From a candidate division WS6 bacterium OLB20 (GTDB lineage Bacteria > Patescibacteriota > Dojkabacteria > B142 > OLB20), in NCBI GenBank assembly GCA_001567355.1, contig JYNZ01000002.1, positions 7,477-71,476 on the forward strand: a DNA stretch of 64,000 nt, given 5' to 3'. The translations under genes and the position numbers were made by a program. This document shows positions 28,703-39,408 of the stretch, one piece after another. Each line of letters opens with the position of its first letter. Within the stretch, counting starts at the first letter, position 1. The notes under the pieces are model-generated. The model saw nothing but the letters and a program-made list of their open reading frames with translations, ran no database searches and was not told the DNA's origin.

Positions 28703-29113
28703 ATGTCAAACAAGGATACTGATCAACAAGAACTCCCGGACAGCCCCGTAACAGGTCACCCGGGATTTACCGGGACTCTTGCGTATCTCCGTCATTACGA
28801 AGACTATTCATCACGGCCGGCTGTCAGCACAACCCGCTCTGGCAGAGACATTGCTTACTATGCAGCTGTTGCGGAATTCAGACGTGAGCGTGGCGTAACT
28901 CCCCCGGAAATTTCGGATCCTGAGCTTTCAGGGGCGATAGGTTCGATAGATGACTGGTGGGGTACGGATGAGTATGTAACAGCGTCAGAGATTGCTGATA
29001 CATACATGACAGAGCTGCCACATGAGAATGCCAGACCTGATTTGCTGTTTGAGCTTGCCAGAAAGGGTTTTGAAGATCCTCTGTTTCTTCCCGTGTTTAC
29101 AGTACGTACTTGA
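28703..29113 (+). CDS. hypothetical protein (first gene of the ORFan island)
   Basis: 136-aa ORF with no recognisable motifs. Confidence 0.45.
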   Translation: MSNKDTDQQELPDSPVTGHPGFTGTLAYLRHYEDYSSRPAVSTTRSGRDIAYYAAVAEFRRERGVTPPEISDPELSGAIGSIDDWWGTDEYVTASEIADTYMTELPHENARPDLLFELARKGFEDPLFLPVFTVRT

Positions 29114-29131
29114 GAATGCAGGTGAGGCCTG

Positions 29132-30094
29132 GATGGAAGAAAACAGATATGACGTACACCTTCATGCTGCTTCGCTTCTGACGCGCAACAGGGATGCATT
29201 CGAGTTGTTTATCAGTGAATATCAGGAGACTGCTGACAGGGTTTATGCGTCCATCGACTTTCAGCGATTAAGCGACCTGCCTGCACGGATGACAGATAAT
29301 TCTCCTGACTGGCGCAAATCTAACCAGCAGATAACTCGTCTGCAGAAAGCATATGAAGACCTGGTGACCTCAGCCAGGACCGGGGAACAGGAACGCATCG
29401 TAAATGATACGGGTGAATTTATTGCGCAAAGACTGCCGCAATGGCTGACTGAGAATGCATCGCTTGTTGCGTATCTTGACCGGGTTGCGGGATATGCTGA
29501 TATCGGTTATCCGGAATTATACGTGACTACCGTTAACCTGTTAAATAATGTCCCCGTCCGCGATGAGCACTATCTGGAAGACCTGCTGGCAGTGATCCGC
29601 AGGAACATATTACCCAGTCCTTGCAGATGGTGCTTGCTCTCAGTATGGAGCCGGATATGTTCGATATTCTGCAGGTTAATCCTGTTGCATACGGATTTGA
29701 AGATAAAGACCATCTGCTTGAAACAGCAACACTGTTCGGACGGTTACTGAGAATGAATGTCAGATCTGGCGGCAGGGATGTGCTTGAGCAGATAATGATG
29801 CATATGCCAAAAGAGCAGTTTGTCCATCCGAATATCGAGCTTGAGTCACGTAATGCAGTTATGCATTTTCTGATGTTTAATGCGGCAGTGACTGATCCTC
29901 AAAAACGATCGGAAGTAAGGGCACTGCTTAACATACCTGAGCCGGACGAAGACAGTGTCATCAGCAGACAAATGATTAGAGAGCAACTACACCAGAGCGA
30001 GACATCTGGTATAATTGAACTGAACATAGACCCTGAACACGTAGGCAGATTCTGGTCTTACTTTAATTATACGCACGAACTGTGCAAACGGTAA
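29132..30094 (+). CDS. hypothetical protein; frame break near 29598-29603
   Basis: ATG at 29132 is preceded by AGGTGAGG. The frame 3 product decays into Cys/Trp-rich junk after AVIRR. The sensible continuation (EHITQSLQMVLALSMEPD...) lies in frame 2 through 30094. Confidence 0.45.
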
Positions 30095-30098
30095 CAAA

Positions 30099-30320
30099 AT
30101 GGCAGGAGAAGCACCAACATTTCTGCAGATGATGTCAGAGAAGGGGTTAAGGTTGACCGGGAGACCGCACTACCTCGATAAATCTCTTGAGGCTCCCGCC
30201 GTTGATATAGCCAGTATTCTGACAGCCGAGCAACTCCGAGAGGAGGGGCTCTATGATTTAGATGCCGAAGTTCAAAACAGCAGTGCAGAAGTACCTGGTA
30301 CGAAATACCAGGAACCCTGA
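30099..30320 (+). CDS. hypothetical small acidic protein
   Basis: 73-aa ORF starting 5 nt after the upstream stop. Confidence 0.3.
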   Translation: MAGEAPTFLQMMSEKGLRLTGRPHYLDKSLEAPAVDIASILTAEQLREEGLYDLDAEVQNSSAEVPGTKYQEP

Positions 30321-30415
30321 AATCTGTAACAGGAGTTGACGTATTTACAACCTCGCAGGAGGTTGTTTTTATGCCTGTTGTTGTGATATATAATAAGTCT
30401 ATATGATAACTGATC

Positions 30416-31303
30416 ATGACTGGAGAGATCCCGGGAGATCATATCCCAGAAATTCCTGTATTTGCTGCTGATAACACTGTCCTGGCTGCAGAGACTGCAA
30501 AAAAATTTTCATCAGGTCTGATCGGTGTTGACCCTGAACGTGAGTCTGAGGCAGCGCAGATTCATGCATCAGCAGTCCTGTCCGAAGATTTCAGTCCGCG
30601 TTTTGAGGCTGTAACAAAAGAAACAGCACATCAGCTGCTGACATGGCTTGACGGTGTGCATGGCATCTCTCTTCATGCAAAGAACCACCTGCATGCTTTG
30701 GACAAACAATACAGACTCGAGTTCCTGATGCAGATGGCGCTGCGTGACTTTCTGGTGCAGCGCGTTACGAACGGAGTCGCACGTTCAAATTTTGCTCTTG
30801 AAATGGCTGCGGTGGATCGGTCACTGCCGCTTGCAGCGCAGGCATCGAAGCTCGTCTCTGAATTTGAATCCGATACCGGTTACTACAGCTCTGTTAGCAG
30901 GTCGGCAGGATCGTTCGAACGTGGAGCGGCAGCAGCTGTTGCCCTGGACTGGTATAAAAGAAACAAGGGTGATCTGGCCGAGATTGATACTGCCGTCAGC
31001 AAGGGAGCTGCTGACGCAAACATTGTTATCGGTGGTGGCGATGGAGGACCTGTCCGTAATGCAGACATTATAGTACTTGGAACTCTGTTCACGCTGAATG
31101 CTGCTCTTCCGTCAGCAAATGAAGAAGAACAAGCAAGAAGGACTCATGTTCTCAGCAGACTGGGAATCAATCCTGATCTGGTCTCGTTCTCTCCTTTAAG
31201 TGTAGATGCAGTGTATGGTACAATTCATCAGCAAAGATGGTATCAGGCCGGTTATAACCTGATCATGATGAATAATACACCACGTACATTGCTGGATAAA
31301 TGA
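30416..31303 (+). CDS. hypothetical protein, member D of a four-gene paralog array
   Basis: Shares YRLEFLMQMALRD and a C-terminal LSRLGINPD block with ORFs 31569, 32530 and 33478. Confidence 0.5.
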   Translation: MTGEIPGDHIPEIPVFAADNTVLAAETAKKFSSGLIGVDPERESEAAQIHASAVLSEDFSPRFEAVTKETAHQLLTWLDGVHGISLHAKNHLHALDKQYRLEFLMQMALRDFLVQRVTNGVARSNFALEMAAVDRSLPLAAQASKLVSEFESDTGYYSSVSRSAGSFERGAAAAVALDWYKRNKGDLAEIDTAVSKGAADANIVIGGGDGGPVRNADIIVLGTLFTLNAALPSANEEEQARRTHVLSRLGINPDLVSFSPLSVDAVYGTIHQQRWYQAGYNLIMMNNTPRTLLDK

Positions 31304-31488
31304 ACGAAACATTAGGATTTACAGGACAGATGATGACAGAACCGCTCCCGCAGGAACTGTTCCCCTTGTTTGCGACCGAGAATCGTCCTGATTACGATTA
31401 TGTCTGGAACCGGATTGCAGGCGAGCCAAAGCCAGACGCGCAAACCGAGACTCCCCCGTCCACAGAGAAATCTTCCCGCGAACCCTGA
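31300..31488 (+). CDS. hypothetical small protein (ATGA-coupled)
   Basis: 62-aa ORF overlapping the upstream stop. Confidence 0.3.
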   Translation: MNETLGFTGQMMTEPLPQELFPLFATENRPDYDYVWNRIAGEPKPDAQTETPPSTEKSSREP

Positions 31489-31568
31489 ACGCTGTTACAA
31501 ATATTACTCCGCTGCGTAATACCTGCTGTATGACTTCGGTGTGATTTTCTGTTTATTACACTGCCATT

Positions 31569-32420
31569 GTGGCCGAATACAGCGGTATGGAAGAACACGT
31601 CCTCAATCAGTCCGCATCGCCGGATGAACTGCGGTTGCGATTCTGTTCGCTTGGATACAGTTTTTCACCCACTCCGGACTTTCTTCGTCAGGCTGCGGGA
31701 TTGAATATGGTACAGCAGGGCTGTGCTGACAGGTTTTATGAATTTGCCGGTGCAGTCCTGCGCGGGTATACGGATATTCCTGCAGACAATGAACATACTG
31801 CCGGGCTTTCTGTCTGCCTCAGACTGCTGGACGAGAGAGATACACCTCTGTTCCGGCAGATGCAACCGCACGCAATGGTGGAGTATGCCGCCACAGCAGG
31901 AAGACGTCGCTGGTTTGACGGTATGGCTGCTGATCTGTTTGATTATGCAGACAGGTTCTATGATTTCAGACGAAAGAATAATCCCTATCCCGATCTGGGG
32001 CTGCAGCCAGCCGACTTCGGGATTATGGCTGCAGACCGATACCAGAGCTGGGGTTTTGCTGATGTGAACTCTGCGGTCCGGCTGATGGATACCGTGGCTG
32101 ATATATACGCCAATCCGGATTTCGTTGATCGTACAGCATACGAAATAGCAATGAGCAGCCCGATGCTGATAGAGCACGTCAACGGGTCTGTTACAAAACA
32201 TGGCCAAGCAGAGGCAATGGCAGGGTTGTTCAGGTTCCTGTACCTCAAGTCTGTTCTACCTGAGGATGCTGAAGCGTTTACACCATTTCTCGGGCTTCCA
32301 CGCAGACTTGCAGCGACCGACTATGGACTTCCTGTCGGTCAGATCGGTAAATATTTCACAGACTGGGACAGATCGTTTCTGAGAGATACTATTGTCCGGC
32401 GCACGCTCGTAAGTATTTAA
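31569..32420 (+). CDS. hypothetical protein, paralog array member A
   Basis: IPADNEHTAGLSVCLRLL and the C-terminal LGLPRR...GKYFTDWDRSFLRD are paralogous to the blocks in 32530..33441. Confidence 0.5.
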   Translation: MAEYSGMEEHVLNQSASPDELRLRFCSLGYSFSPTPDFLRQAAGLNMVQQGCADRFYEFAGAVLRGYTDIPADNEHTAGLSVCLRLLDERDTPLFRQMQPHAMVEYAATAGRRRWFDGMAADLFDYADRFYDFRRKNNPYPDLGLQPADFGIMAADRYQSWGFADVNSAVRLMDTVADIYANPDFVDRTAYEIAMSSPMLIEHVNGSVTKHGQAEAMAGLFRFLYLKSVLPEDAEAFTPFLGLPRRLAATDYGLPVGQIGKYFTDWDRSFLRDTIVRRTLVSI

Positions 32421-32529
32421 GAACGCTTTCAGATTTTTATGCAAAAGTTGATACAAACAATGGCACAGATTCGTAGAACTAAATACTGAACTTCGCTGTT
32501 GTATTTCATTTCTTAATACACCTGTTTTC

Positions 32530-33441
32530 ATGGTAACTGCCACGGTAACACCGCACGTCGATCACGATACAAGCCCGTTTACTGAGATAGTCTGTCGCAC
32601 TAAAGGTGTCGACAGTCCGCACTTTATCCTCCCACGGTCAGAATTTTTGAGCAGAACTGTACACAAGTATGAAGGCGTAGCAGGGCGGCACAGCAGGCAG
32701 GCTGCAGAATCCCTATATGCTGCACACCACAGTCCTCTTGACGGTGAGCCGGTTGTACCTGACGAGCATACTGTCGCCGCGCTGGCTTACTGGGAGAGCT
32801 GGCTGCTTGGAGGAACTCCGGTTCAGGGTGAGCTAAGCAGTATACTACCTGACAGGTATGCCGAGTACATTACAAAAATGGCTGCTCGAGATATGTTTGC
32901 TCAGCAGTCTGTTCGGCTGCAACAGCTTTTTTCGGCACTCGAGATGGGTAATGATATGCCCGAAATGGCACAGGATGCAATCGCGACGCTCAAACAGGAT
33001 TATGACGCATACGGGTTTGACAGTTTTAAGGACGCAATAGCTTTTGCGCGCCAGATGCGCTCTCTCAGAAACGCACCTGACTATGTCAATATTGTACGTC
33101 CTGCAGCAAAAAAGCAGATGCTTGCTGCTTATGACCCTGCGATTGTAGAACGTTATGGCCTGTCGGTATCCGATTCCGAAGTGGATGCCGGTTTCTTTGA
33201 CTTCTTTTATCTCAATGAGCTGTTCAAGCCGTATGCATTAAATGAGGATGGCGAGTTCGGCTGGGACGTTGCCATGCACAGACTTGGCATCCCGGTTGGT
33301 GCATCCAGACAGCTTCGGGCACAGGATGGTCAGATCCCCGATGTCTCACTTATCACCAGATATTTCACCGGCTGGAATAAGTCATTTATTCGCAATGAGC
33401 GCCAGTCGCAAGCGTTTCTGCGGCAGCAGGCCGTTGCCTGA
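32530..33441 (+). CDS. hypothetical protein, paralog array member B
   Basis: VPDEHTVAALAYWESWLL, YAEYITKMAARD, and the C-terminal LGIPVG...TRYFTGWNKSFIRN. Confidence 0.5.
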   Translation: MVTATVTPHVDHDTSPFTEIVCRTKGVDSPHFILPRSEFLSRTVHKYEGVAGRHSRQAAESLYAAHHSPLDGEPVVPDEHTVAALAYWESWLLGGTPVQGELSSILPDRYAEYITKMAARDMFAQQSVRLQQLFSALEMGNDMPEMAQDAIATLKQDYDAYGFDSFKDAIAFARQMRSLRNAPDYVNIVRPAAKKQMLAAYDPAIVERYGLSVSDSEVDAGFFDFFYLNELFKPYALNEDGEFGWDVAMHRLGIPVGASRQLRAQDGQIPDVSLITRYFTGWNKSFIRNERQSQAFLRQQAVA

Positions 33442-33477
33442 TTGTAACAATATGCCCCGGGATGAGTATTACTAACA

Positions 33478-34734
33478 ATGACAGAGGCGCTTGAGTTTAA
33501 CAATCTGCCTGAGGTTGTGATTCATCCTGACAGCATTTACGGGTGTTCATCACTCGATTTTTATAACAGGGTGGCGCTTGAGCGGGCTTCGCGGACTACG
33601 GTATGTACCGACGTTCAGCTGCAGGAGGCGCAACGGATGTATCTGATCGCCGATGACAGCACACTTCATCAGGGTGCCGGTGTTCCTGAAGACTACCACA
33701 AAGCACCTGCTGCTGATGATACAGGGGTTTATATGCAGCACCGGGGAACGTACGCAGGCATAGCACTGCTCAAAGACTGGTGGGCACGTGCGCCTGAGGA
33801 TGCAGAGCGTTTCAGTCGCGTCAGACCAGAGTTTCAGTTGAGCTATCTTGAGACGATGGCACGGCGTGACAAGCACATTCAGAATGTGACCATGGTATAT
33901 GCATACGGTGACATGCTGCGGATGGATAGTGCAGGAAGGGATCTGCAGGATGTGATCGATGAGGCCGATGCACTGAAACAAGAGTATCCTGCAGCTGCAT
34001 GGGTGCAGTCAAAGTATGCAGGACTTGGATTTACCGACGCTCTAACTGCAGGCAGGCTGTTTTCCGAATACAACGGAGTATATGGTCAGGATGCTCAGGT
34101 TCAGGCGGGTCTTGTTGTCCGGGATCTTCTTGGCCGCGGTGTCCTGGACAGCAATGATCATGATTTTATTGTCTCTGTCATGAACGGCTATACCGAGGAG
34201 CAACTTGCAGATCATGTTGATGCCATGAACGCCAGAAGCATGAGTGCAGTGACACTGCTGGCAATTGAGTCCGGTCTTCACGAGTGGGGGTTTGATTCTG
34301 TGTACGACTTCGCCGAGTTTACCGATGGAGCGTTCAGGCTGGAGCAGGATTCCTCCGCTGCGGCCAGGGGACAGATAGAACACTGGATGGCAGCATTTTC
34401 AGATACTCAGAGCGAAGATCCGCTGACATCGTTTCGCACCTATCAGTACCTGGCTTTTCTCGCTTCTAAACAGCCTGCACCGGATAATGCATGGGCTGAG
34501 ATGCTCAGGCGTCTGGGGATACCTACAGATACTCCCCGTGAACGGCCGCTTTCGATGTCCGGACGTATAACACAAAGAAGAATCGGAATGTTCTTTTCTC
34601 ATATGAACGAGACCTATTCACGTTTCGGCTACAAACGCAGTCATATGGAGCTGTTTTCAGAGATGCCACGGCTGTTCACGCGCAGAGGTCTGAAAAACGT
34701 TCTTACTGTACTCGCTGACAAGGCAATAGCCTAG
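33478..34734 (+). CDS. hypothetical protein, paralog array member C
   Basis: VPEDYHKA, QLSYLETMARRD, and the C-terminal RRLGIPTD block. Confidence 0.5.
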   Translation: MTEALEFNNLPEVVIHPDSIYGCSSLDFYNRVALERASRTTVCTDVQLQEAQRMYLIADDSTLHQGAGVPEDYHKAPAADDTGVYMQHRGTYAGIALLKDWWARAPEDAERFSRVRPEFQLSYLETMARRDKHIQNVTMVYAYGDMLRMDSAGRDLQDVIDEADALKQEYPAAAWVQSKYAGLGFTDALTAGRLFSEYNGVYGQDAQVQAGLVVRDLLGRGVLDSNDHDFIVSVMNGYTEEQLADHVDAMNARSMSAVTLLAIESGLHEWGFDSVYDFAEFTDGAFRLEQDSSAAARGQIEHWMAAFSDTQSEDPLTSFRTYQYLAFLASKQPAPDNAWAEMLRRLGIPTDTPRERPLSMSGRITQRRIGMFFSHMNETYSRFGYKRSHMELFSEMPRLFTRRGLKNVLTVLADKAIA

Positions 34735-34792
34735 TCTTGTATTTAATCCGTTGCCTGCTATAATTACCTACGCCGGACCTCGTCCGGATCAT

Positions 34793-34866
34793 TGCCGGGT
34801 CGTCTAAAGGTAGGACATTGGTTTCTGGCACCAAGAATCGGGGTTCGAATCCCTGCCCGGCAACCA
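34793..34866 (+). tRNA. tRNA-Gln (anticodon CTG), CCA encoded
   Basis: Acceptor TGCCGGG/CCCGGCA with the U1-A72 pair typical of tRNA-Gln, anticodon loop TTCTGGC, T-arm CGGGGTTCGAATCCCTG, discriminator A, CCA. A TATAAT box at 34759-64 and a short hairpin at 34773-87 lie upstream. Confidence 0.85.
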
Positions 34867-34942
34867 GACTGAAGCCACAGGCTCTGTTTTCCCTCCGTGT
34901 CTGAGATCGCGCTGCTAACGGGGATGGATTGATTCCAGGATG

Positions 34943-35926
34943 CTACCGTTGTTTGCGAAATGCATGCTCAAGGTAACCCGACAGCACCCGTTTATACGCT
35001 GCAGCCTGAGAAGCATCGCCTTCGGGACTTTCTGATACCCAGCGTCCGTATCCTGACAGGATGGATTTCGTTAATTGTGCCGCAGGACAGTGTCGTTCCA
35101 TCTTGCCACGGGTGACACTGAAACCTGATCTGTAAGTTACTTCGGTTACATCGCCGTCACCAAGCATGATTGATATTGCTCTGAGCAGAGGCTGCCTTGA
35201 GTGTGTACTATGTCTCAGTGACAGAATTGCATGGTACAGACTTGATTCACTGCTTCTGTCGGGAGCAGGAAATACCATCCGTAAGCGTGACATAAGATCA
35301 TCGAATGACTGTACAGGCCCGGAAAAACTCTTCGCAACCGACCTTCCAAGTTCAACAGGCATTGCCAGACCTGTTTCCAGGGGCAGTACAGGATTATCAT
35401 CTTCTTCAAAGAGCTCTTCATATCGTGGTCCGAGTGCTATGGCATAGCCGGTAAAATGCATTACTGCAGAGAAGAACCCATCATTCGCCCGTTCCAGATG
35501 CTCTGCAAACACATGTGTGGGATTCTCAGTCTGATAGCCATGCAATTGCGGTTTCAGCGTCTCGGCCAGTTTTACAGCCTCTTCGCGCTCCGGTTCATAT
35601 AACTCTAAATTGAGATGAAAGAATATGCTCTCCAGCAGGGAGGCATCTCCAAGCAGCTTGAGTTCCTGCGGCAGGAGATGAACAACCTGACCAACTTCAT
35701 TTGCAAGTGTATTCAGTCGTCTTGTGTTGACGTACGAGCAGTATGGATTATTGATGCTCTGATATCGGTCCGTATCCAGAAGTGCAGAAACGAGTCCGAT
35801 ATCGGTTACCTCAGGATCGGATTCTAATCCCGCACGTTTAAGATATTCAGCACGGGCCTCCCGATAACTCTGGGCTAATTTTCTCCCCGAAATGATTTTA
35901 TGAATCAGATACTCAAATGTATGCAT
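34943..35926 (-). CDS. hypothetical protein
   Basis: 327-aa ORF with no recognisable domain. Confidence 0.45.
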   Translation of the reverse strand: MHTFEYLIHKIISGRKLAQSYREARAEYLKRAGLESDPEVTDIGLVSALLDTDRYQSINNPYCSYVNTRRLNTLANEVGQVVHLLPQELKLLGDASLLESIFFHLNLELYEPEREEAVKLAETLKPQLHGYQTENPTHVFAEHLERANDGFFSAVMHFTGYAIALGPRYEELFEEDDNPVLPLETGLAMPVELGRSVAKSFSGPVQSFDDLMSRLRMVFPAPDRSSESSLYHAILSLRHSTHSRQPLLRAISIMLGDGDVTEVTYRSGFSVTRGKMERHCPAAQLTKSILSGYGRWVSESPEGDASQAAAYKRVLSGYLEHAFRKQR

Positions 35927-36006
35927 AGATACATTATATCATGTAGATATAATTGGACATACAGGGCTGCTGTGGTAGTATGATACGAATTATTTAACAA
36001 CTTCGT

Positions 36007-37074
36007 ATGGAAATCCTTGTCTCACTTATTGTCCTGGCTATCTGCTTTATCTATCTTGCGTGTATTGTTGATAATTACTTTCTGAAAAGTCTGGACAATA
36101 TTGCGGACTGGCTGAAACTGTCACCAAGTGTAGCGGGCGCGACACTGATGGCTATTGGTACGAGCGCCCCCGAACTCTCAACAGCTATGTTTGCGCTGTT
36201 TCTGCCGAACACAAATCCTGCTACCGGACTTGGAACCATTGTCGGATCTGCTCTGTTTCAGATACTGGTCGTCATCGGTTTTGCAAGTCTGGTGAAAACC
36301 AGTTACCTTAACTGGAAGCCCGTTGTGCGAGACGGGGTGTTCTATACCTTTTCAATAATTGCACTGGTGCTTGTACTGCTTGACGGCAATATCAGTGTTG
36401 TAGAAGGCGGAATCTTTCTTTCTCTGTACGTTCTGTACCTGCTTGTTCTGATTCTGTGGACAAAATATGTAAAAGAAAGCGATCCTGATCCGATTGAGCT
36501 GTTTGAAGAGGGTCTGGAAGAAGAGTCAAAAGGCAGTCCTGTCGCTGCTGTGATCGATCTGATGACGTTTCCGCTCAGACTGCTGCCTGATCCCTCTAAA
36601 AAAGAGAGAGCGACCATCCCCGTGTTTATTCTGTCTCTGGTCGGCATAGCCGGCATCAGTTACGTGCTTGTTATTTCTGCAGAAACGCTGGCTTCAGGGC
36701 TGGGTGTTCCTGCAGCAATCATTGCGTTGACAATCCTTGCGGGTGGAACAAGTGTACCCGAGCTGATCAGTTCTGCGATAGTAGCAAAACAGGGGCGGGG
36801 AGATATGGCGATCAGCAATGCAATCGGCAGTAACATCTTTGATATTCTTATCAGTCTCGGTCTACCCGTATTTATCTACACACTGATTAATGGTGATCTG
36901 GCAGCAACAGATACCGAAAATATCAACACATCCATCCTTCTTCTGTTTGCAACGATGATCATGGTTCTGCTGCTGCTTGCTTCGCAGCGTTTTAAGGCCG
37001 GCCGGCTCTTCGGACTGATACTGTGCGGTCTGTACGTTGTCTATGTGATTGCGGCATATGCCGGTCTGCTTTAG
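36007..37074 (+). CDS. Ca2+/Na+ antiporter (CaCA family, YrbG-like)
   Basis: Two alpha-repeat signatures, GTSAPELSTAM and GGTSVPELISSAIVAKQG, within 10 TM segments. Confidence 0.75.
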   Translation: MEILVSLIVLAICFIYLACIVDNYFLKSLDNIADWLKLSPSVAGATLMAIGTSAPELSTAMFALFLPNTNPATGLGTIVGSALFQILVVIGFASLVKTSYLNWKPVVRDGVFYTFSIIALVLVLLDGNISVVEGGIFLSLYVLYLLVLILWTKYVKESDPDPIELFEEGLEEESKGSPVAAVIDLMTFPLRLLPDPSKKERATIPVFILSLVGIAGISYVLVISAETLASGLGVPAAIIALTILAGGTSVPELISSAIVAKQGRGDMAISNAIGSNIFDILISLGLPVFIYTLINGDLAATDTENINTSILLLFATMIMVLLLLASQRFKAGRLFGLILCGLYVVYVIAAYAGLL

Positions 37075-37150
37075 CAGCTGACTTTCGACCTGTCAGGGCA
37101 GGAAAACGGGCTGGGGCAGAAAGACTCATATGTAGTGGGATCTCCGTTTT

Positions 37151-38362
37151 TTACCTTGAAACACCAGCCGCAACTGGGACATTCCGCTTCATCATCAAAG
37201 CCGGTCGCAGTGAGATCTCCATCCCCGGGCTGAATCCTGCATTACTGCCGTTCTGGCGGTTTGCGGCATATGAGAAGCCGCAACCCTTAAGCACAAAGTT
37301 AGCCTGCCGCATCATTGTGTCCTGATCGTCTCTGGATAATGAATCAAAAGAGTCAAGTGTGCAGGTCTCACCTTGCAGGGCTTTGATGTACTGTTCTATT
37401 CTGAACTGCTGGCGCATTATCGCTGCTGCAATCTCTTCCAGGGTTTCGATTTCGATCCATCCTTCGCGCGAAGAGGAGAGTCTGGCGGCTTCGGATTCAG
37501 CAATCGGCAGAATAGAATCGTAAACCTGTGACTGAACATCAAGTAGCATAAAATCCTGCAGCAGAGAGACTTTTTCAGGCGGCAGTGTCTTCAGTCTCTG
37601 TGTCGAAGCAAACTGACGCAGGCTGTCGATAAAGTCTTCGCTGACCCGACCCGAGGTACTCATTATCGCAATATCATCGAGGATCCCGGGCATGTTCTGC
37701 AGCGGGTCAGGCTCGCTACTGTATTCACAAACAGCGCTGCGTACAGGATCGGAAGCCAACTGCTGCAGAAGAGGACGGTAAGCCTCATAGCTGGCTGCAC
37801 CCTTGAACCAGAGCTGTTCAACATGTTCAGTGCCATTCTCAGACCGGTAAATAAGGATTGTATCGTTACCTTCGTAGCCTCTTGCATACGCCTGCTGTGT
37901 CATTTCGGGGCGCGGACTGAATTCAGCCATAGGGCCATTGTAGCCTGCTGCGCGGGCACGCTTGAGACGTTCGTAAAAGAGCCGGTTTTGTGTATTGCGC
38001 GGCTGCTCAAACTCAAAACCTTCCAGCTGTGCAGAAGAGTCGGTTTCTGCGAACAGGTCGTCAAGCAGACCGAACTGTGACTTCAGCGCCGGGCCGAGTG
38101 GAGTGTCGGTCCAGTGCAGACAATAGCTGTCTTTTCCGGTTGCTGAAGCGGTGTGGTGCTCCCGGACTGCACGAAACAGGTTACTGTGCGCCTCGGCACG
38201 CGCTGCTGCAATGGCCTCTGGTGTGCTGATGAGATATCCTTCTAGAAGTGTCGCCACATAATTGACGGCATTTGCAGCAATACCCGCATAACGGTCTTTT
38301 ACTGAACGGACGTAGTCACGTTCATAAATGGATATTGTTTCTGGAATGACTGCTTCGGTCAT
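37151..38362 (-). CDS. hypothetical protein
   Basis: 403-aa ORF with no recognisable domain. Confidence 0.45.
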   Translation of the reverse strand: MTEAVIPETISIYERDYVRSVKDRYAGIAANAVNYVATLLEGYLISTPEAIAAARAEAHSNLFRAVREHHTASATGKDSYCLHWTDTPLGPALKSQFGLLDDLFAETDSSAQLEGFEFEQPRNTQNRLFYERLKRARAAGYNGPMAEFSPRPEMTQQAYARGYEGNDTILIYRSENGTEHVEQLWFKGAASYEAYRPLLQQLASDPVRSAVCEYSSEPDPLQNMPGILDDIAIMSTSGRVSEDFIDSLRQFASTQRLKTLPPEKVSLLQDFMLLDVQSQVYDSILPIAESEAARLSSSREGWIEIETLEEIAAAIMRQQFRIEQYIKALQGETCTLDSFDSLSRDDQDTMMRQANFVLKGCGFSYAANRQNGSNAGFSPGMEISLRPALMMKRNVPVAAGVSR

Positions 38363-38547
38363 ACATCGCCCGAGTGTGGCGATGTACCTTTGTGGTGCAT
38401 GCCCTCTGCTCGGAGGTTAACAAATATGACTGCATGGTATCCGGACTTACCGGCACAAAATGTGCAGGATTACCGTTGCGGCACAGTGGAGGATTTTCAC
38501 CCCCTTCCCCATGCAATGCTGCCACTATACGGTAATTACTGTCAGAC

Positions 38548-39408
38548 GTGCAAGTGGTTGAGTATCGGCTGAAAACTATATACAATTACTGCAGTATGAA
38601 GGACGGACCATTCTCTAAATTTGTAGGTGCTGTAAAACATCAGGCTGCCAAAGTCAGCACAGCCGGGCTGCATCCTCGCTACATGTGGGATGCGTCAAGC
38701 GAAAGAATCCGGTACTGGATGCTCAACAGCATCTTCCCCGAGAACACACGGGGACACAATCTGCACAAAGCGATTGATCATGCACTTGAAAACGGAGAAT
38801 TTATCATGCAGATCGGTTGCGGGCGACATGGACAGGCGCTGCTTGACCTGAAAAAACTCGGAGCAGGTAATCTTATCGGAATGGATTTTCGGGTTCCGGC
38901 TGAAGATTACGAAGATATTGCATTTGTTGCAGCTGATCTCACAAAACGACTGCCGGTTGAGGATGATACATTCACGGGGCTGGTATTCGGTTCGTACCAT
39001 TTTCACTATATGAGTCCCGGCGAGCAGCTGCATCTGCTTACTGAGATTGACAGGATTACAGGTCCAGGCTCTCTCGGATTTCTGGGGCCGTTCTTCCCGC
39101 AGCATCTGCTTGAGGGACCCTTTGCTGATGCGTTTTCTGATTATAAAAATCCTGTGTACGGTTTTGTTAAGTCAAGAAGTGTCGGCGGACAGCGCTGGCG
39201 TCTATACCGCAGCCGTATCGCAAGTCTGTCAACATTTTCAGGAATAAAGACCAGTTCGCGGACGCGAAAAGGAGTGCGTATACCGCTTCTCAGTTTTTAC
39301 GATATGGGATTCCGTTCGCTGACAGGCAGGATGCTGGGTAATGCACGCATCAAACGTGATTATCGTCCGATCATCCCTAACGAGTACTTCATCACCTTTG
39401 AGAAGTAA
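38548..39408 (+). CDS. putative class I SAM-dependent methyltransferase-like protein
   Basis: Motif I-like IMQIGCGRHGQAL, plus an acidic motif II-like AADLTKRL...GLVFG. Confidence 0.4.
   Translation: MQVVEYRLKTIYNYCSMKDGPFSKFVGAVKHQAAKVSTAGLHPRYMWDASSERIRYWMLNSIFPENTRGHNLHKAIDHALENGEFIMQIGCGRHGQALLDLKKLGAGNLIGMDFRVPAEDYEDIAFVAADLTKRLPVEDDTFTGLVFGSYHFHYMSPGEQLHLLTEIDRITGPGSLGFLGPFFPQHLLEGPFADAFSDYKNPVYGFVKSRSVGGQRWRLYRSRIASLSTFSGIKTSSRTRKGVRIPLLSFYDMGFRSLTGRMLGNARIKRDYRPIIPNEYFITFEK

Follow-up and report, generated by a model that had tools for sequence, protein, structure and literature searches.

Is a tandem array of diverged paralogs beside a tRNA gene an accessory island, or can it be a fixed part of the chromosome? 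This question is raised by a locus within a stretch of 64,000 nucleotides (contig JYNZ01000002.1; hereafter the window) from the candidate division WS6 bacterium OLB20, which belongs to Candidatus Dojkabacteria within the candidate phyla radiation (CPR). Here, four genes that we call C, A, B and D precede a gene for tRNA-Gln. NCBI labels the whole locus as hypothetical proteins (TR69_WS6001000125-136), and no functional annotation was found anywhere. A preliminary description had interpreted the locus as an accessory, variable island at tRNA-Gln that carries effector/immunity-like or surface cassettes. The comparisons presented below point in another direction: C, A, B and D, together with a probable split copy upstream, are members of one very rare protein family, and the array appears to be chromosomal, vertically inherited and held in a fixed slot rather than part of a mobile island.

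The four genes lie on the plus strand, with C at 30416..31303 (295 amino acids, aa), A at 31569..32420 (283 aa; the NCBI start at 31587 gives 277 aa), B at 32530..33441 (303 aa, TR69_WS6001000131) and D at 33478..34734 (418 aa). The list of open reading frames (ORFs) bears out these positions and lengths as first reported, and the predicted tRNA-Gln(CTG), at 34793..34866 on the plus strand, indeed closes the array behind D. The genes had also been presented as four consecutive ones, which has to be corrected, as a plus-strand ORF of 62 aa (31300..31488) overlaps the stop codon of C and sits between C and A. It shows weak conservation (32% identity) upstream of the A ortholog in a related contig, L001.

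The claim that the four are clearly paralogous holds for A, B and D; C does not qualify in pairwise comparison and joins the family via its profile only. In pairwise BLASTP searches among all ORFs of the locus, the only significant match was that between A and B (2e-9; hhalign 4e-7 across 188 columns). The profile of A and B aligned to that of D, each with orthologs from two relatives, over 194 collinear columns (E 3.1e-8, probability 95%), D having an insert of around 85 aa relative to A/B and a C-terminal extension. Pairwise scores for C were weak (BLASTP 0.34; hhalign 3e-3 versus D), and a hidden Markov model (HMM) built from 17 family sequences gave C 23.9 bits (E 7.5e-7; hhalign probability 93.6%, E 2e-7). 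Tested window-wide on 555 six-frame segments (minimum length 50 aa), this model had a background maximum of 6-7 bits (best score outside the members 6.8 bits) and scored A, B and D at 252, 280 and 267 bits, respectively. The motif blocks quoted in the preliminary description were present and aligned (EY..(T)MA(R)RD, RLG(I/L)P and YFTxW(N/D)xSFxR), and the family as a whole shares the collinear motifs P-E-x-R-x-E-Y-x-x-T-M-A-R-R-D, W-G-F, F-x-F-x-Y-L-N-x-L-F-P, R-L-G-L-P and I-G-x-x-F-x-x-x-N-x-x-Y-x-R. C, the most divergent member, retains the MARRD and RLG blocks only, as LEFLMQMALRD and RLGINP. No DNA-level repeats indicative of gene conversion were found between the paralogs, and BLASTP and hhalign revealed no relation of the neighboring ORFs R, S, o28703, o30099 and o31300 to the family or to each other.

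Upstream of C, the family HMM and the coding potential suggest a further copy at 29133..30094 (plus strand), split or frameshifted, an assignment that we favor with some reserve. The coding potential followed frame 0 from an ATG at 29133, with ribosome-binding site AGGTGAGG, to around 29610 and then frame 2 to 30094; the switch falls near 29550-29620, and the tail of frame 0 is Cys-rich and non-coding-like. NCBI annotates only 29627-30094 (155 aa, KXK27253.1) and leaves 29114-29626 blank. The frame-2 ORF (29567-30091) matches HMM positions 169-256 (WGF..FYLN..LGLP), the C-terminal half of the family, with 16.1 bits (E 1.9e-4 window-wide; hhalign probability 89%, E 2e-6). A -1 fusion at around 29610 lengthens the collinear match to HMM positions 104-254, with a score of 19.7 bits, and brings in VRDEHYLEDLLAVIRRN, a MARRD-like block. 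The stretch reads the same in a Logan contig from SRR29904086, a further public assembly that matches the window at 100% across 20.9 kb; this is the only other assembly of OLB20, and since it is identical it offers no population variation to use. In another related contig, L004, the second family gene after member P0008 is split over two frames at 2058-2686 (HMM 103-183 and 213-299), which reflects either a further frameshifted copy or a mistake in the assembly.

Two such broken copies, in a region devoid of annotation, might be taken to mean that the array consists of spurious or decaying ORFs without function. We find this hardly credible: the frames are open and the motifs collinear across lineages despite saturated synonymous sites, the expected frames have positive coding potential, and the structural model described below is confident. 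Decay is thus contradicted for A, B, C and D, and is possible for the split copy only.

The family is extremely rare in public data. A word-indexed search of 5.8 billion proteins recovered one relative of B (47% identity) and two of D (36-37%), and no close homolog of C besides itself. The spread of the family, for which profile searches had been proposed at the outset, was assessed by running HMMER exhaustively against 1.84 billion cluster representatives: this yielded 17 hits, of which one was a eukaryotic repeat artefact and 16 were real, so that only around 16 true members were found in that entire set. Ten of these were newly found, distantly related members with lengths of 249-304 aa. 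Nothing emerged from pattern scans that covered 185,579 species genomes, JGI metagenomes, IMG/VR, and phage and plasmid records, the reach of such scans of genome, metagenome and viral contigs being limited, as they missed even the JGI contig that carries member P0006. The known carriers are a handful of metagenomic contigs with an OLB20-like gene order, and among the finds the family is restricted to one WS6/Dojkabacteria branch. A search of the literature on OLB20/WS6 gave nothing relevant.

The gene order in these relatives indicates a fixed position. The slot or order is conserved in L001, L003, L004, L005 (162 kb), L006/L007 (GCA_023246075.1) and L008-L014. In all related contigs found, the B-type gene precedes a D-type gene or, on the shortest ones, the truncated start of another gene, and tRNA-Gln(CTG) comes after the last family gene in every contig that extends that far. 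The B-type and D-type genes are separated by gaps of 2-37 nt. The longer contigs show the same slot, which is bounded by rsmI/rpmB and, at the opposite end, by methyltransferase/SpoU/iPGM. In the window this corresponds to rsmI (plus strand) and rpmB (minus strand) upstream of the array, and to pyk (minus), SpoU (minus) and then iPGM downstream, past a methyltransferase-like gene. The housekeeping proteins on the flanks share only 47-80% identity with their counterparts in the window, and the relatives are therefore not close strains.

L001 carries a small ORF, A', B', D', tRNA-Gln and R' on the minus strand, A' being 49% identical to A, and L003 carries B'', D'' and tRNA-Gln. On the 162-kb contig L005, an amylase, a 2-hydroxyacid dehydrogenase, BlaI, an M56 peptidase, DsbA, HSP20, RsmI and L28 (minus strand) precede an array made up of P0017, a FecR-domain transmembrane protein, P0010 and P0016, followed by tRNA-Gln; downstream come a corrinoid adenosyltransferase, a 404-aa gene (minus), the methyltransferase, SpoU (minus), a 205-aa gene and iPGM. 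The flanks of this contig match those of the window in both gene content and gene order. In L007 and L010 the order is B-type gene, D-type gene, tRNA-Gln (inverted), a gene of around 403-411 aa on the minus strand, methyltransferase, SpoU and iPGM, with pyk in L010, which starts with a FecR-domain protein ahead of the B-type gene; L004 and L008 show RsmI and then a family member.

A neighbor-joining tree separated three sets, namely the B-type (B, B', P0008, P0010-12/14), the D-type (D, D', D'', P0013/15/16) and an upstream type (P0017, P0019), with A and C on long branches. This grouping implies that the duplications are older than the split of these lineages. At least two paralog subtypes are thus ancient, and the order B-type, D-type, tRNA-Gln has been retained. 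Copy number ranges from 2 to 5 across lineages, the OLB20 lineage having extra copies (A, C and the split one). Variation between lineages concerns the periphery, namely the upstream ORFs and C/A, all of which are specific to the OLB20 lineage, and, downstream of the tRNA, R and a Na+/Ca2+ exchanger gene. The latter is absent from the slot in L005, L007 and L010, and R and the exchanger are inserted 3' of the tRNA in the OLB20 lineage.

Two further features of these contigs concern the array itself. The tRNA-Gln gene is inverted relative to the array in L006/L007 (2106-2179), L010 (3272-3345) and L011-L013, where it lies 1-13 nt past the D-type stop; it thereby follows, in the same orientation and at short distance, the minus-strand gene of around 403-411 aa (preceded by a riboswitch in L010), and the adjacency of array and tRNA survives the inversion. 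Secondly, a FecR-domain protein of 490 aa with an N-terminal transmembrane helix is encoded inside the array in L005 (8433-9905), L009 (2-1348), L010 (1-1299) and L011 (1-1290). Its gene sits between the upstream-type and B-type genes, and the protein is 44% identical between lineages.

How do these findings bear on an integrated island? The idea of a strain-variable element at tRNA-Gln with diversifying effector/immunity or surface cassettes draws on the tandem diverged paralogs that adjoin the tRNA, on their rapid sequence divergence, on a copy number that varies by lineage with some copies split, and on a gene content 3' of the tRNA that differs between lineages. In L003, moreover, the 20-nt tRNA-Gln 3' end (GAATCCCTGCCCGGCAACCA) occurs three times at 127-nt spacing just past the tRNA (1671-1944), so that the 3' side may have had insertions or duplications; integration/excision or replication slippage could have left this tandem duplication behind. 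The array is, however, located 5' of tRNA-Gln, and integrative elements insert on the 3' side of a tRNA. A repeat of the tRNA-Gln 3' end was sought with 25-nt and 19-nt queries (up to 3 mismatches) and had a single occurrence in the 64 kb, hence no att-like repeat. No integrase or recombinase Pfam family was present in the ORFs from 25 to 41 kb, a PHROG search gave no significant match (only two hits, E 0.03-0.08), and no toxin, defense (Pfam, PADLOC) or phage signatures were found. The GC content is flat at around 0.49, with 0.47-0.52 within the region versus 0.46-0.52 beyond it and no step. The order, and on longer contigs the slot, recurs in spite of the divergence of the flanking proteins, and the paralog subtypes predate the lineage splits.

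Taken together, the missing att repeat, integrase and GC step, the 5' position and the synteny contradict an island for the core of the array. The preliminary description had itself named conserved synteny in distant relatives as an argument against its interpretation, and such synteny was found for this core in all related contigs recovered; the proposed effector/immunity-like or surface cassettes, lacking any toxin, immunity, defense or phage signature and being of ancient subtypes, are not supported either. We consider an integrated accessory island very improbable.

What, then, might the proteins do? The family is soluble, acidic, all-alpha and around 300 aa long, and apparently cytoplasmic: as already stated in the preliminary description, signal peptides and transmembrane segments are absent (maximum 19-residue Kyte-Doolittle mean 0.57-1.43, isoelectric point 5.0-5.4), which is a further point against surface cassettes. 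For the 18 members, searches of Pfam, NCBIfam, PHROGs and PADLOC gave nothing at E<0.006 and no family that was matched by more than one member, and profile searches of PDB sequences were empty. An AlphaFold2 model of B based on an 18-sequence alignment was confident (pLDDT 88.6, pTM 0.86) and all-alpha, with 13 helices; a previous model of D, based on 6 sequences, reached only a mediocre pLDDT of 64. Foldseek searches with the B model against PDB and BFVD recovered no neighbor (best E>=1.3, TM-score <=0.17, root-mean-square deviation 15-40 A). In view of these searches, the suggestion that the proteins form a previously undescribed family can be maintained. A ferritin-like or ribonucleotide reductase (RNR) R2 identity, hinted at by ORF o29621 (Pfam E 0.1) and by the top Foldseek match of B (E 1.9), was rejected, as these matches were at chance level and no conserved ExxH was present; the same holds for a scaffolding protein in the case of ORF o29022, for which Pfam (E 0.069) and PHROG (E 0.08) matches on the same stretch were sub-threshold.

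Conservation is concentrated in a few places. In B numbering, P107, E112 (13/18), M117, R119 and R120 (18/18, MARRD) are conserved on the long central helix, W161-G162-F163 at a helix junction, and Y227, N229, L252, G253 (18/18) and P255 (RLGLP) further on, followed by N283 (14/18) and R288 (17/18) in the loop-rich C-terminal part. The family has no internal repeats and no coiled-coil-like periodicity, nor a conserved cluster of His, Cys and Asp of the kind expected for metal or acid-base catalysis. The family orthologs are consistently the most diverged genes of the syntenic block: between L007 and L010 the B-type proteins are 43% and the D-type proteins 39% identical versus 52-67% for their neighbors, and between the window and L005 identity is 17-29% versus 47-80% for the flanking proteins. 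For ortholog pairs among the window, L001 and L003 (NG86), the nonsynonymous divergence (dN) was 0.33-0.73 and the synonymous divergence (dS) was saturated and undefined in all pairs, so that dN/dS cannot be computed.

From these properties we infer that the paralogs would be co-transcribed and would probably function jointly in the cytoplasm, with B-type and D-type subunits forming a hetero-oligomer in which each subunit retains a putative Arg-rich polar pocket (Arg/Asn/Glu) that may bind an anionic ligand or an anionic partner. Such a function would be specific to the lineage, core and chromosomally fixed, and not accessory, mobile or defensive. As a whole, this picture is a tentative reading, plausible and somewhat short of even chances. 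Several points weigh against it. The pocket derives solely from the positions of conserved residues relative to predicted secondary-structure elements. The array is present in all recovered relatives, and in the same slot wherever this is visible on the contig; these relatives were picked through the family itself, so that genomes with an empty site fall outside the sample and 'core' is to be read accordingly for the clade. Fast evolution and copy-number change (from 2 to 5, with split copies in the window and L004) would also fit an accessory or conflict role, and the membrane-anchored FecR-domain protein inside the array in L005 and L009/L010/L011 hints at an envelope-linked function.

The same polar residues could instead serve independent paralogous enzymes or ligand-binding proteins, without an obligate complex, that use the E/R/R/Y/N/N/R site for related small molecules in a lineage-specific metabolic or salvage step. 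The retention of R120, R288, N283 and E112 in all subtypes at around 20% pairwise identity, the location of the family among metabolic and housekeeping genes and the lack of repeats or coiled-coil-like periodicity are in line with such a role. It is, however, hard to reconcile with the absence of likeness to any enzyme family or fold (Foldseek best E>1), the lack of a His/Cys/Asp cluster and a rate of evolution that is unusual for enzymes, and we regard it as a doubtful though serious alternative.

An envelope or host-interaction role is less probable still. As a rule, CPR bacteria live as episymbionts and encode numerous lineage-specific proteins that evolve quickly, and the present family, which evolves faster than its neighbors, might be exported by a non-classical route or consist of cytoplasmic partners of the FecR-domain protein; its rapid evolution would then be driven by interaction with host or phage. 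The FecR-domain gene between upstream-type and B-type genes supports such a link, but no homolog of it was detected in the window with tblastn, leaving the OLB20 lineage without one here, and the proteins have neither export or membrane signals nor cell-surface repeats. We consider this possibility unlikely, and retain the hetero-oligomer of cytoplasmic paralogs as our working interpretation.

The surroundings of the array had been described as a region of ORFs without recognizable domains. For 11 ORFans this is correct, as none of them has a family in Pfam, PHROG, NCBIfam or PADLOC; it does not apply to the plus-strand gene at 36007..37074, which encodes a membrane protein of the Na+/Ca2+ exchanger family (PF01699, 4e-56), or to the methyltransferase-like gene at 38548-39408. 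The ORFan o28703 (28703..29113, plus strand, 136 aa, KXK27252.1; taken from the ORF list, with coding potential in its own frame) aligns collinearly with the family N-terminus, yet at noise level (6.8 bits, E 0.13; hhalign probability 6%, E 0.006), its HMM score being equal to that of the best unrelated segment of the window. For the small ORFan o30099 (30099..30320, plus strand, 73 aa, KXK27254.1; ORF list) no relative was found. A terminator-like hairpin with a T-run (30347..30366, plus strand; from a consensus scan only) may divide the upstream ORFs and C into two transcription units. An extended -10-like element, TGCTATAAT, precedes tRNA-Gln and is conserved between the window (34750-34792) and L003 (1590-1616); tRNA-Gln probably has a promoter of its own. 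Beyond the tRNA lies ORFan R (34943..35926, minus strand, 327 aa; ORF list), the ortholog of which, R', occupies the same place in L001 (37% identity).

The last ORFan, S (37151..38362, minus strand, 403 aa; ORF list), is preceded on the same strand by a cobalamin riboswitch aptamer (Rfam clan CL00101) at 38415..38557, which lies 52 nt upstream of its ATG and covers the full length of the RF00174 model with 44.8 bits versus a gathering score of 31.5. A hairpin scan placed a hairpin at 38362-38386, right against the S start codon. In the corresponding slot of L005 (14254-14357) and L010 (4744-4835), RF01689 (AdoCbl-II) was found above threshold 5' of the minus-strand gene of around 404 aa, and in L005 an ATP:corrinoid adenosyltransferase gene adjoins this riboswitch-linked gene. 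Homology between S and the Cys-rich family of around 404 aa was considered and rejected (hhalign probability <1%, only a short GCG motif being collinear), and neither has detectable homology to anything known. The methyltransferase-like gene, a long ORF on the plus strand, overlaps the opposite-strand riboswitch; the second assembly starts it near 38596, which is probably the true start. Its product is 51-53% identical across lineages, and the gene is always divergent from the riboswitch-linked one.

CPR bacteria (Patescibacteria) have small genomes in which a large share of the genes has no known function, and lineage-restricted hypothetical families are common among them. Such commonness makes the interest of the present family moderate, even though no relatives are detectable. 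The family is nevertheless tractable for study, as it combines a confident model and ancient paralogous subunits with the absence of a detectable sequence or fold relative. Because its chromosomal position is fixed, it more likely belongs to the cell biology of the lineage itself than to mobile cargo, and it may help to explain what sets this Dojkabacteria branch apart. A more general implication is that tandem diverged paralogs beside a tRNA are insufficient for calling an island. The riboswitch-controlled ORFans, in turn, provide a testable lead to B12-related proteins in cofactor-scavenging organisms. At its most far-reaching, the locus would hold a new all-alpha fold that forms a hetero-oligomeric cytoplasmic machine specific to Dojkabacteria, with ancient B-type and D-type subunits and an Arg-rich ligand site, which would be lineage-defining and have no counterpart in other bacteria, next to S and the Cys-rich family of around 404 aa as a new class of B12-responsive proteins; we put this forward as a speculation that is rather unlikely to hold in full.

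Compared with known systems, the locus resembles tRNA-linked islands and integrative elements in having genes of unknown function beside a tRNA and some variation around them, but it differs in the absence of an integrase, a repeat of the tRNA 3' end and a compositional shift, in the location of the array 5' of the tRNA and in its presence in all related contigs found. With polymorphic toxin/immunity and anti-phage cassettes it shares tandem, rapidly diverging paralogs, whereas toxin, immunity or defense domains (Pfam, PADLOC) and secretion-associated domains are lacking, and the subtypes are ancient and conserved in order instead of recently shuffled. The top Foldseek matches, which included RNR R2/ferritin-like proteins, isoprenoid/terpene synthases, bestrophin and alpha-pore-forming toxins, have only a large all-helical build in common with the family; their DDxxD, NSE and ExxH motifs are absent from it and the matches do not exceed chance. 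Finally, although S and the family of around 404 aa match no family of B12 transport, B12 biosynthesis or B12-independent isozymes, S resembles the members of cobalamin-riboswitch regulons in that an aptamer at the Rfam threshold lies directly 5' of the gene, as is also the case for its positional counterparts in L005 and L010.

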